From Escherichia phage EPIMAM01: 64,000 nt of DNA. Below the pieces are notes generated by a model. The model was not told where the DNA came from and ran no database searches. It saw only the letters and a program-made list of their open reading frames with translations. Below, in pieces: positions 41,298-43,904 of the stretch (positions within the stretch are counted from its first letter, which is position 1; each line of letters opens with the position of its first letter). Position numbers and translations under genes: made by a program. The stretch lies in sequence record PQ493298; one strand, given 5' to 3'.

Positions 41298-41828
41298 TTA
41301 AACTTCTGCTATAATTTTACCATCTTTTTCTACTTGAAAATACGTATAAGGAATCGTTGCTGTACATACTAAAGCCGGGTCTGAATCTTCTGTGTAGCTA
41401 AATTCTACTTCAGATAGGTCAGAAACCCAAGGCTTATAAAAATTTATTGACATCACGATTTCAGTTTTGCTATTATCTAAAATGTAAAGCGTAATGTATT
41501 CAGGACCTGTTTTTTGGGCAGTATTTTCGCCTGTAAGATAGTTACTAGTTCCTAGCATCCATTCATACATTCCTATCCACGACTTAAGCTCTTCGTCAAC
41601 TATAAATCTCACGATGAGTGGATCGTATTCAAATGTAACTCCTGGACGTTGTGCTCTGCCTAGTCCAAACGGCCCAGTCACGGTATCAGTAACAGGTATC
41701 CTAATTCCTGGAATAGGAACTGACTGAGCATTTAAAGTAAAAGCAGATGTAGTATTACTATGTGGTATTGATACTACAAAGTTAGTTGTATTTGCTTGGT
41801 TAAAAATTTGTTGCAGTGCTTGCGACAT
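41298..41828 (-). CDS. 3: Tail completion/sheath stabiliser gp3
   Basis: 176 aa from ATG 41828 (MSQALQQIFNQ...) with GAGGA Shine-Dalgarno. Confidence 0.85.
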   Translation of the reverse strand: MSQALQQIFNQANTTNFVVSIPHSNTTSAFTLNAQSVPIPGIRIPVTDTVTGPFGLGRAQRPGVTFEYDPLIVRFIVDEELKSWIGMYEWMLGTSNYLTGENTAQKTGPEYITLYILDNSKTEIVMSINFYKPWVSDLSEVEFSYTEDSDPALVCTATIPYTYFQVEKDGKIIAEV

Positions 41829-41934
41829 ATATTCCTCATAATGCTTTATAAATGTTGGTGGTATAATGGGTCTAAGTCCCTTCCATTCAATTCCAATTAG
41901 AACAAACAATAGAAAAGAATGGAAGATAATAGAA

Positions 41935-42594
41935 TTAATTTATTAGACTTCTTAAACGAGCAGAAGTCATAAATGGAAATTTTTCTAAAGTTGGCTTTCG
42001 CCAATATCTTGGATGACAAGTTGATTTAAAATCAAGAACAACTTTCTTTGCTTCATCAATAGTGTTAACTCCAAAGTTATCTAACATTATTTTCTTTTCT
42101 TTTTCCCACCGTTTATTAGCTAAAGCAGATTGAAGCTTTTTGTTTTTAAATGTGTCATTTTTTCTAGAATGAGTTGTGCCTTGTGTCGGACTCCATCCTC
42201 TTCCTAAAATAAATCCCTCAGGAATTATATCTCCATCATGTAATTTTATACATCTTTTACCATTATTATAATATTTTCGTCCAGTTTGTGTATTTGAAAT
42301 ATTATTTGCATGTTTTCTTTTTAACCAACCATAAACTTTATTATTTCTCCTAACATATTTAGTTGAAACCGTCATTTTTATGGCTGCATAAGATAATTTT
42401 AAAGAATTTGGGTGTATTTTTACTAATAGCTGATGTGCAACATAATGCTCTTCTGGAGTTAAATCAACCAAGTTAGAAGCATCATTACTACCGCCTAAAC
42501 ATTTCGGAATAATATGATGTCTTTCTTTATATCCAGTAAGGGCTCTATTGCGAGCCCTATCAATTAGTGAATTATAAATTTTTTCATAATTCAT
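41935..42594 (-). CDS. Free-standing HNH homing endonuclease
   Basis: 219 aa from ATG 42594 (ATGA overlap with gene 2 stop); HNH core [27 protein letters not shown]; very basic C-terminal half. Confidence 0.7.
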
Positions 42595-43418
42595 CGTACA
42601 TTGCTCCAAACTTTGTTTGCAGAGAAACGTTTTCCTTTGGAGTAGAAGCTTTGGAGTGGCATTAACACAACGTTCGCCCAGTCTTTCGGGGCGATTTCAA
42701 CAAGGCTACCCATAATATTACCGGGGATATATGCCTTAATCATTTGGTCTGCACCCCTAAATCCTTTCACTTGACTCCAATCAATTTTTAATTTCGTTTT
42801 ATTAGTAATAGTAGGTGTATTTGAATATTGCTTTAAAAGCTCTTCTAGAAATTGCTGACGAGCTTTAGGTGGAATATAGTGCAAGTTCAATCCATACATT
42901 AAATTATGTTTACCTAAACCAAGATAAATTATCAAAGGAAATTTATCCCAGTAAGGAAGAGTTTCCTTGTGTTTAGCATCATAAGCAAAAGCATATATTC
43001 GTCCCGGCTGCGGGCGAACAACCTTATGTCCTTTTACTTGCTTAATAGTTTCAGCAAACCACTTTCTGGTTTTATTATTAATTGCTGCACCTTCATTACG
43101 AATTTTATCACGCAATGTTTGCCTGAATGAATTTATCATAAGCAGTTGTCTTTCTTGCTTATTGAGTTTATTCATTGGTTTTGATTCAAGCTTTTGAATC
43201 TTTTCAGCTGTTTTAATTCCTGAAGCATATTTTGACATTGCCGAAGTAAACGTAGAGTATTTGATTCCTCTTTCTTCAGCAAATTTCTTTCCTGTCATTC
43301 CTTTTGCTTTGGCCTTTTTGTATTCAAGACCTATCTGAATCCATTTCTTTTCGTTTAATGATTGCTTAACCTTTGGAACTTGGGGAGTGCTTTCATTAAT
43401 TATTTGAAAAATAGCCAT
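42591..43418 (-). CDS. 2: DNA end-protector protein gp2
   Basis: 275 aa; position between genes 4 and 3. Confidence 0.8.
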
Positions 43419-43870
43419 TATGCCCCCTTAAAGCCAAGAGCTCGTAATCCATCTTCTGTTAAAATTCTAAATTTTATTCCACGCTTTTCAGCTAAAGATT
43501 GCGCTGCTTTCCATTTGTCAGTATTAACGGAATATGTATAAATTTCATTCATAAATCTTTTCTTCGCTGCAGTTGTTAGATGTGCCGGTTTAACTGGTGG
43601 TTGTGTTTCTTTTTTAGGTTTTATTTCAATAAAAAATTCTTGTCCAGAAGAATCTTTCATCCAAATATCCATGAAGTATCTACGTTTTTTCCCTTCTGCA
43701 TTACAAAAATAAGGAATTACTGCTGTTTCACTACCCCATGCAATAATTTCTGGATTTTTATCTAACCATTCAAAAAAGAATTTTTCCCAATTTGATCTAT
43801 ACGTAATTTTTTTAGGGTCACCTCTATATTTTGATATATTTTTAGGAACCCATTTTCCAGAATATGCCAT
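43418..43870 (-). CDS. 4: Head completion protein gp4
   Basis: 150 aa; [30 protein letters not shown]... Confidence 0.85.
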
Positions 43871-43896: not shown

Positions 43897-43904
43897 TATT
43901 TATA
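43897..43904 (-). promoter_or_regulatory. T4 late promoter TATAAATA (minus strand) upstream of gene 4
   Basis: Forward tatttata; divergent from the gene 53 promoter. Confidence 0.55.

Follow-up and report, generated by a model that had tools for sequence, protein, structure and literature searches.

HNH homing endonucleases of phages

Activity data among the Mob proteins of phage T4 are available for MobE and MobA only, and the route that leads from an HNH nick to homing is open (PMC2988022). The best characterised of them, MobE, makes its nick in nrdB where phages with and without mobE differ in sequence, and DNA flanking this site is co-converted (PMC2790892). Its gene is a promoterless cassette, perhaps translationally coupled (PMC2790892; PMC2988022), and the same promoterless, possibly coupled arrangement has been described for several T4 seg and mob genes (PMC2988022). 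Intron-encoded members are also known. I-HmuI and I-HmuII, from the Bacillus phages SPO1 and SP82, combine an HNH nuclease domain with a DNA-binding region and are described as nicking one strand, with homing that co-converts flanking markers (PMC2790892). I-TevIII, from the nrdB intron of phage RB3, is an HNH homing endonuclease of T-even phages that acts as a dimer and makes a double-strand break (PMC2988022).

A gene of this kind lies between the structural genes 2 and 3 in the window, the whole 64,000-nucleotide stretch of Escherichia phage EPIMAM01 (PQ493298) that was analysed. It is very probably a Mob-type HNH homing endonuclease gene that is mobile or was so until recently. It resembles the genes of T4 MobA-E in several respects: an N-terminal HNH domain of the same subfamily is followed by a region specific to the protein, the gene sits between genes and beside a conserved essential one, it lacks its own promoter, and there is an overlap between its start codon and the upstream stop. 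Polymorphisms linked to it in the neighbouring gene recall those at the MobE nick site in nrdB. It differs from the T4 mob genes in its insertion site, which is the gene 2/gene 3 junction instead of alpha-gt, nrdA/nrdB and the like, and in a C-terminal domain that, judged by tblastn coverage, has no counterpart in the T4 Mob proteins. Further, mobE has an internal terminator, whereas a scan of the present gene found none. Unlike I-TevIII, which is intron-encoded, the gene is free-standing. It thus agrees with what defines free-standing HNH homing endonuclease genes of the Mob type, and has its own C-terminal domain and an insertion site that is new relative to T4.

The element is an ordinary selfish gene that has already been annotated. 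RB32ORF146c is the same gene, with 99.5% protein identity (the copy in the window differs by V185I), the same position and the same junctions. Its 2006 annotation reads 'putative site-specific intron-like DNA endonuclease; similar to mobB; not conserved from T4 position', and Table 5 of PMC2993671 lists two mob-like endonuclease genes for RB32, of which this is presumably one. GenBank orthologues at the site include HY03_0011, e112_157 and fPS-2 g141c, and many later GenBank records label the gene a homing endonuclease. In another genus, Gaprivervirus, VR7ORF161c, annotated as 'putative mobile endonuclease', represents orthologues that are about 60% identical and occupy the same site. Literature searches, within the library available, found no study of RB32ORF146c or of any endonuclease at the gene 2/gene 3 junction. 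The present analysis adds the exact architecture of the junction, the fidelity of the family to the end of gene 2 across at least four genera, the contrast in diversity between the gene and its flanks, a series of decaying copies, and a patch, candidate for the target and immunity site, whose recurrences in four genera vary in extent. For genome annotation this has little import, as the gene behaves as T4 biology predicts. Its modest value lies in a member of the Mob family with unusually clean comparative data (a precise insertion, about 500 natural alleles, three haplotype classes and a pattern repeated in four genera), which point to a testable target site in gene 2. A well-defined enzyme and target pair could be useful and could widen the set of monomeric nuclease domains for engineered nucleases.

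Architecture of the gene 2-gene 3 locus

The open reading frame lies on the minus strand at 42594..41935 (features are given hereafter in ascending order, 41935..42594), from an ATG at 42594-42592 to a TAA at 41937-41935, and encodes 219 aa. It matches the PHROG family phrog_655, 'homing endonuclease', with E=1e-58, and 2,923 homologues of the protein were found in a protein collection at E<=1e-5; the frame is therefore no chance occurrence. It has a G+C content of 29.7%, lower than the 35-37% of the flanking genes. All genes of the neighbourhood are on the minus strand, in the order gp4, gp2, the endonuclease ORF, a 106-bp spacer, gp3 and gp1 (dNMP kinase). Gene 4 (43870-43418) encodes a protein with a TnsA-like nuclease fold (PF08722, E=2.8e-21). 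Gene 2 (42591..43418), which is the host gene and the probable target gene, encodes the 275-aa DNA end protector (phrog_429, E=4.5e-80). Downstream, gene 3 (41298..41828) encodes the 176-aa tail completion and sheath stabiliser protein (PF06841, E=1.5e-12), and the spacer between genes 2 and 3 (41829..41934) is unchanged 3' of the insertion when loci are compared. No paralogue of the ORF was found within the 64-kb window. A first-pass annotation made from the sequence alone had described a 219-aa ORF between genes 2 and 3 whose ATG overlaps the gene 2 stop. Its coordinates are correct and the missing strand can now be supplied; the overlap takes the form ATGA, the gene 2 TGA being 42593-42591, with gp2 upstream and gp3 downstream after 106 bp.

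The alignment of occupied, empty and remnant sites defines the insertion precisely. In coding orientation the empty junction reads ...GCAAACAAAGTC TGG TCA AAT ATC TAA TTCTATT..., and the occupied junction reads ...GCAAACAAAGTT TGG AGC AAT GTA CGA TGA AT...(ORF)...AAT TAA TTCTATT.... Thirteen bp at the end of gene 2 are thus swapped for a recoded gene 2 tail and the ORF, and the TAA of the ORF takes the position of the gene 2 TAA of empty genomes. The recoded end with its ATGA overlap (42591..42609, minus strand) replaces GTC TGG TCA AAT ATC TAA by GTT TGG AGC AAT GTA CGA TGA, so that the C-terminus of the gene 2 protein changes from VWSNI* to VWSNVR*. Position 42609 is perfectly linked to the insertion. 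Because the serine codon is recoded from TCA to AGC, a Shine-Dalgarno-like GGAG (42604..42607, minus strand) can be read in the sequence 9 nt 5' of the ATG of the ORF.

Expression signals were sought by scanning the coding strand. The late-promoter consensus TATAAATA occurs upstream of gene 4 (43897..43904, minus strand), where it is the only TATAAATA on the minus strand upstream of the ORF before 40886; in phage fPS-90 a predicted late promoter is annotated at the equivalent place. The scan found no TATAAATA on the coding strand between gene 4 and the ORF, hence no promoter of its own, and no terminator-like site. With a sole upstream late promoter before gene 4 and no terminator, the ORF is apparently a promoterless cassette within a late 4-2-ORF-3 transcript, of which the gene 4 late promoter is the presumed source. 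Translation of the ORF is possibly coupled to the termination of gene 2, as the overlap suggests.

Domain organisation of the protein

The HNH catalytic core occupies residues 22-56 (42427..42531, minus strand). An alignment of 30 homologues showed that H26, H27, N41, H50 and H54 are invariant, and the HNH sequence motif, made up of a catalytic His, a structural Asn some 14 residues further on and a His that binds metal, is present as H26-H27...N41...H50...H54. A profile of the family matched solved structures on residues 21-54, namely McrA (6ghc, E=0.002), a group II intron maturase (6me0, E=0.0095) and also Cas8-HNH. The ORF protein itself scores below the Pfam cut-offs (17.8 bits for PF14279, cut-off 27.5; 16.5 bits for PF01844, cut-off 21.4), and 22 of the 30 family members match PF01844 at E<=0.01, the best at 1.7e-4. 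The HNH motif quoted in the first-pass annotation is present in the translation, and the reading of a free-standing HNH endonuclease is borne out by the invariant motif, the profile matches that fall on it and the 22 Pfam HNH matches. The C-terminal half had also been called very basic. It is basic (pI 10.14 for residues 101-219), although this does not set it apart, as residues 1-100 have a pI of 9.95 and the entire protein is basic.

An AlphaFold model built from the same 30-homologue alignment has a mean pLDDT of 89.8. It predicts a beta-beta-alpha core with strands at 24-27 and 42-45 and a helix at 47-60, then a helix and beta-hairpin module at 89-118, a low-confidence linker at about 134-151 and a four-helix C-terminal domain at 152-218. 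When the model was compared with the PDB by Foldseek, the top matches were Cas8-HNH domains, with a weak E=0.45, a result that is consistent with the HNH assignment and is no proof of it. The middle module, delimited by the alignment and the model at residues 86-133 (42196..42339, minus strand; YYNNG..IK..P.GF..GR), is common to many other Mob-like endonucleases, whose tblastn matches at other loci cover 77-86% of the query. The four-helix domain (residues 152-219; 41938..42141, minus strand, from the model) is specific to the family, and it presumably binds DNA and sets the target.

This modular composition is also apparent in the distribution of sequence similarity. In tblastn searches residues 1 to about 95-115 matched more than 900 phage records at other loci with 45-69% identity, including T4 mobD, RB59 mobB and mobE-like genes beside nrdA, helicase and topoisomerase genes. 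Identity was 53% to T4 MobD over residues 1-70, 45% to RB59 MobB over residues 1-114 and 54% to a MobE-like protein over residues 1-96. Full-length matches were limited to genes that follow gene 2. The extended two-part layout, an HNH domain followed by a presumed DNA-binding region, is one that I-HmuI and I-HmuII also have. Searches with the ORF protein by sequence, profile and fold did not bring up I-HmuI, and the ORF lies outside any intron, which separates it from intron nickases of the I-HmuI type.

Presence and absence among related phages

A search with a 2.3-kb query spanning the locus matched 513 GenBank phage records, nearly all of them Tequatrovirus. The query was covered fully by 36 records and to 71% by the remainder, which among the matches listed span 1642 or 1639 bp, exactly 659 bp under the span of the query. 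Short diagnostic queries then counted 37 Tequatrovirus records in GenBank with an occupied junction and 463 with an empty one, counts that include RefSeq/GenBank duplicates; the ORF is present in about 7% of the records. Empty and occupied sites are exactly 659 bp apart. T4 has no ORF between gene 2 and gene 3, only the same 106-bp spacer. Among the occupied records are at least four ICTV species (RB32, hy03, fps2 and e112), to which phage CT01 (species ecnp1) adds a remnant. The indel in Gaprivervirus is again 659 bp, with 9 occupied records among the 41 that match; presence/absence polymorphism at the gene 2 end is found in Moonvirus too. IMG/VR viral contigs were also searched with gp2. This collection yielded three close relatives, all empty, and was for that reason unfit for population counts, for which the GenBank phage records were used.

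The first-pass annotation had stated that no endonuclease was known at this junction in T4 and had proposed a strain-specific mobile insertion, to be checked across T-even relatives and refuted if all of them, T4 included, carried the ORF. The junction is empty in T4, where the 106-bp spacer alone parts the two genes, and in the great majority of the records counted. The mobile part of the proposal agrees with the precise 659-bp indel and with the low diversity, mixed backgrounds, decay and linked polymorphisms described below. 'Strain-specific' has to be dropped: the 37 Tequatrovirus records with the gene cover at least five ICTV species, and at least three further genera have orthologues at this site.

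The position of the gene in a late structural operon, beside gp2 and the TnsA-like nuclease fold of gp4, might suggest a domesticated or accessory nuclease that serves the phage, either as a weapon against gene 2 of co-infecting relatives or in DNA metabolism. Precedents can be named: interference competition mediated by phage endonucleases is the subject of one report (PMC11620839) and HNH genes beside the terminase are presented in another as functional partners in HK97-like phages (PMC10448857). Such a role is nonetheless quite improbable here. The gene is dispensable, being missing from about 93% of Tequatrovirus records; its copies decay by deletion and frameshift; the empty site corresponds to a clean deletion of exactly the ORF; and interference would be a by-product of the same cleavage activity, with no need for a separate mechanism.

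Relatives at the end of gene 2 in other genera

Full-length relatives of the protein, with 46-66% identity, are encoded directly after gene 2 in at least four genera. They stand immediately after gp2 in Citrobacter phage NM4.3 (Moonvirus, 65% identity), Escherichia phage UPEC07 (Gaprivervirus, 60%) and Serratia phage SP1 (Muldoonvirus, 52%), as well as in the metagenomic contigs P0005, P0016 and P0024. In P0024 (46% identity) the downstream gene is gp4-like instead of gene 3, which indicates that gene 2 is the constant partner. The start of the endonuclease gene abuts or overlaps the gp2 stop in each of the four named genera, as ATGA, TAATG, TTGA or TGATG. Between genera, the identities of the endonuclease (65/60/52%) can be set against those of gp2 and gp4 (73/70/58% and 68/63/65%). 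The divergence of the endonuclease is similar to that of its neighbours, which argues for a long association with the site. The bond of the endonuclease family is thus with the 3' terminus of gene 2.

Diversity, spread and decay in Tequatrovirus

An alignment of about 8 kb around the locus was made from 10 occupied loci, the CT01 remnant and 12 empty loci. Among the 10 occupied genomes the mean pairwise difference was 0.70% in the ORF, compared with 2.96% in gene 3, 1.90% in the rest of gene 2, 1.70% in gene 4 and 2.22% in gene 53; diversity of the ORF in occupied genomes is thus 3-4 times below that of the flanks (0.70% vs 1.9-3.0%). The flanks of occupied genomes are as diverse as those of empty genomes, and the occupied genomes are spread over both major flank haplotypes. 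Low diversity of the ORF together with its presence on both haplotypes implies that the element is of more recent date than the DNA around it and has passed from one background to another, a pattern that, at the level of sequence, fits horizontal spread by homing.

The ORF is intact in about 33 of the 37 records, with 0-2 amino-acid changes, and damaged in the other four. In CT01 an in-frame deletion of 486 bp has removed the HNH motif, a remnant that parallels the deleted relic of I-TevIII in T4 (PMC2988022). FL23 and FL44 share a 1-nt deletion and frameshift that truncates the protein at 64 aa, and in Manna a 1-nt deletion has cost the stop codon; these three single-base cases are possibly sequencing errors. 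The damaged copies fit the decay stage that is expected for homing endonuclease genes. Taken further, the damage in CT01, FL23, FL44 and Manna, the rarity of the gene (7%) and the precedent of T4, which carries a defunct I-TevIII (PMC2790892), could be read as signs of an inactive relic, a formerly mobile endonuclease gene that has become neutral and simply lingers. This is very improbable, as most records (about 33/37) hold intact copies, the catalytic residues are invariant across orthologues that are only 46-66% identical, and diversity below that of the essential flanking genes indicates recent spread and not long neutral residence.

Polymorphisms linked to the insertion

Outside the ORF, only two islands are associated with the insertion, the recoded junction (42595-42609) and a 16-bp patch within gene 2 (42639..42654, minus strand), which lies 45-60 bp upstream of the gene 2 stop. 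The patch is a candidate cleavage or immunity site on the evidence of linkage, GenBank counts and the other genera. It exists as a T4 type, CTTCAGCAGTTCGTTTCA (LQQFVS), and an occupied type, CTCCAAAGCTTCTACTCC (LQSFYS), which differ at 9 of the 16 nt and at two amino acids, against a background of 2-3%. The islands are separated by a near-invariant stretch of 29 bp, AAAGGAAAACGTTTCTCTGCAAACAAAGT (42610..42638, minus strand), a candidate binding site. This stretch is identical in 22 of the 23 genomes of the panel alignment (one empty IMG/VR locus has a single change) and encodes 10 residues, of which the peptide KGKR[FY] is conserved across genera. The association is lost 3 bp past the patch on one side and 25 bp past the ORF stop codon on the other, limits that define a co-inherited unit of about 720 bp (41935-42654). 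Import of a whole foreign block, from the patch through the ORF, was considered and rejected: the 29 bp in between are those of T4 and unlike those of Moonvirus, Gaprivervirus and Muldoonvirus.

Combining both markers, GenBank holds 448 records with a T4-type patch and an empty junction, 15 with an occupied-type patch and an empty junction, and 37 with an occupied-type patch and an occupied junction. The fourth combination, a T4-type patch with an occupied junction, was found in 0 records; among the matches listed for it, each begins after the patch. Occupancy is therefore 0/448 for the T4-type patch and 37/52 for the occupied type (Fisher p=3e-44, a statistic that ignores phylogeny and has duplicates included).

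A comparable pattern appears in the other genera. SP1 differs from its empty relatives L012/L016 in the same codons, at 7 of 9 bases (49-57 nt, counted back from the end of the gene 2 stop codon). Between UPEC07 and the empty ECML-359 there are 16 differences between -79 and -46 and only 3 in the other ~320 nt, and a divergence patch at about the same place is found when UPEC07 is compared with ECML-359/VR20 and NM4.3 with KM16. The three haplotypes of Tequatrovirus are seen again in Moonvirus, as those of NM4.3 (QSFQS, occupied), Moon (QSFQS, empty) and KM16 (QQFMS, empty). Patch sequences vary by genus, and their common trait is the difference from the local empty allele. UPEC07 and L061 are occupied and yet keep a QQF[FM]S peptide as in empty genomes, which means that the patch is no absolute requirement.

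By analogy with MobE and its polymorphic nick site in nrdB, the likeliest reading of these comparisons is that the enzyme would cut in the patch, or close to it, in genomes without the gene, and that the patch of carriers would confer immunity; to this specific assignment of the target we give an even chance. If so, the 15 patch-only genomes would be resistant products of repair, or recombinants, that did not gain the gene. The opposite polarity has also to be weighed. The enzyme might attack the LQSFYS-type allele, the T4 type being naturally resistant, and self-immunity would then come only from disruption and recoding of the junction, as with intron-encoded enzymes. Occupancy of 37/52 against 0/448 resembles the near-saturation of a limited pool of targets; a frequency of about 7% is better accommodated as well, given that 448 genomes would be susceptible if the patch were an immunity allele; and the occupied-type patch does occur at empty sites, in the 15 genomes and in phage Moon, just as UPEC07 and L061 combine occupancy with an empty-like QQF peptide. 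This polarity is unlikely all the same. A single recognition site from the patch to the junction would measure about 60 bp, which is long for a 219-aa monomer, and the patch is far more diverged than its surroundings (9/16 nt vs 2-3%), as expected of a selected resistance allele. Moreover, the patches vary by genus and share only that they are unlike the local empty allele, and the characterised free-standing endonucleases of T4 target the allele of the genome that lacks them (PMC2790892).

Extending the preferred polarity, in which the empty allele is the target, one may picture a recurring arms race between the endonuclease family and gene 2, in the course of which a stretch of about 16-35 bp around the LQQFVS codons has been rewritten in carriers of at least four genera. 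This extension is tentative and, on balance, rather doubtful. Were it true, the patch-only genomes (15 Tequatrovirus records and Moon) would represent resistant alleles that arose by repair without acquisition of the gene, and the locus would offer a naturally replicated system for watching the evolution of target-site immunity in an essential virion protein.

Proposed homing pathway

In the pathway that these observations suggest, the ORF, having no dedicated promoter, would be transcribed along with the late genes 4, 2 and 3, and its low-level translation would result from coupling to the termination of gene 2, through the ATGA overlap and the GGAG 9 nt upstream. In a mixed infection the protein would attach to the conserved gene 2 terminus of a genome without the ORF and introduce a nick or a cut in the variable patch or close to it, 45-60 bp before the gene 2 stop. 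Repair by recombination with the donor would then copy the unit of about 720 bp, comprising the patch, the 29-bp stretch, the recoded tail and the ORF, and the recipient would thereafter carry the gene and be resistant. What the sequences show is the ORF with its domains and invariant catalytic residues, the layout of the insertion, the scattered occurrence, the low diversity, the decayed copies and the linked polymorphisms; from these we infer nuclease activity, the nature of the lesion (nick vs double-strand break), the position of the target and biased inheritance.

Predicted RNA structure around the start codon

The two linked islands could have a different explanation, in which they mainly form an RNA hairpin that hides the ribosome-binding site of the endonuclease gene, as in the intron endonuclease genes of T4, instead of conferring immunity on the target. 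GGAG is predicted to be base-paired in local RNA folds. The recoded junction contains UUUGGAG, which includes the GGAG and to which CUCCAAA, present two times in the patch of the window, is complementary; the two are paired in the minimum-free-energy fold. Compared with shuffled controls, the z-score of the duplex between the ribosome-binding site and upstream sequence was negative in 7/7 occupied lineages (-0.09 to -1.69; Stouffer z=-2.72, p=0.003) and positive in 8/8 empty sites. The individual z-scores are weak, however (p=0.07-0.46), the whole 121-nt fold reaches only z=-1.5, and the minimum-free-energy folds of SP1, L061 and L062 are without the same hairpin. When a T4-type patch was substituted in silico, GGAG was still paired (P=0.86 vs 0.99), which indicates that the patch is not needed for occlusion. 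On the strength of this chimera the hairpin was rejected as the main explanation of the patch, and its being the principal role of the islands is improbable. Occlusion of the endonuclease ribosome-binding site is in itself plausible, and the patch, as a candidate target or immunity site, may double as an arm of the occluding hairpin.

Endonuclease insertions in the gene 53/4/2/3 region and downstream of gene 5

The stretch around genes 53, 4, 2 and 3 appears to be a hot spot of HNH endonuclease insertion. In addition to the 219-aa Mob-type endonuclease located after gene 2, the region has further ORFs for HNH endonucleases in UPEC07 and three IMG/VR T4-like contigs, where they precede gene 4 or gene 2 (L006:46-753, L013:1543-1869, L014:1846-2172 and L020:2345-2674). 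Their N-terminal domain is a related one (46-56% identity over ~107 aa). In the IMG/VR contig L014, gp2 also extends beyond the stop codon used by the close relatives L013 and L015 (…KVWATCLMVMAWTSSGPFYFMD*), probably owing to an indel close to the 3′ end of its gene. Upstream of gene 2, the head completion protein gp4 (window 43418-43870, minus strand) matches the Pfam family PF08722, the N-terminal domain of Tn7 TnsA-like endonucleases (E=2.8e-21). One GenBank record (BW-1) labels gp4 as a 'head completion nuclease'.

Within 4 kb lies a second site at which an endonuclease gene is present or absent. Here, immediately 3′ of gene 5, several genomes of Tequatrovirus (fPS-2, T6, ZN18, CE1 and Manna) carry an ORF of ~867 bp (L070:8043-8298, L073:7383-7638, L079:7383-7642, L067:8039-8298 and L072:8042-8300); the fPS-2 record calls it a homing endonuclease, and the T6 annotation is seg-like. 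This position is taken by gene 5.1 in a51 and T4-like layouts, and apparently also in the window.

Damaged copies of the gene 2 endonuclease

In Shigella phage CT01, a 486-bp in-frame internal deletion leaves a remnant of 57 aa (L002:2236-2409), and the locus retains both junctions together with the occupied-type patch, the 16-bp gene 2 variant of endonuclease-carrying genomes. In EcNP1, which shares an ICTV species with CT01, the site is empty and the patch is T4-type. Other copies are affected by the deletion of a single nucleotide. In Salmonella phage Manna (L072:3099-4394), the deletion falls within the last codons (equivalent to window 41939) and removes the stop codon, so that the record annotates a 431-aa endonuclease-gp3 fusion; this could be either a sequencing error or real read-through. 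In FL23 (L068:3736-4394), a deletion within a T run (equivalent to window 42415) truncates the endonuclease at 64 aa, and the product retains the HNH motif and loses the presumed DNA-binding part. The FL44 record annotates two ORFs split as in FL23. Both copies are either pseudogenes or products of homopolymer sequencing errors.

Repeats in the patch and the junction

Two direct copies of ACTCCAAAG, placed 9 nt apart, lie in the occupied-type patch (window 42630-42656, minus strand). TTTGGAG at the recoded junction, the rewritten gene 2 tail of occupied genomes, is the inverted complement of this repeat. The two copies and the junction TTTGGAG could constitute an RNA-pairing element or a protein-binding site.
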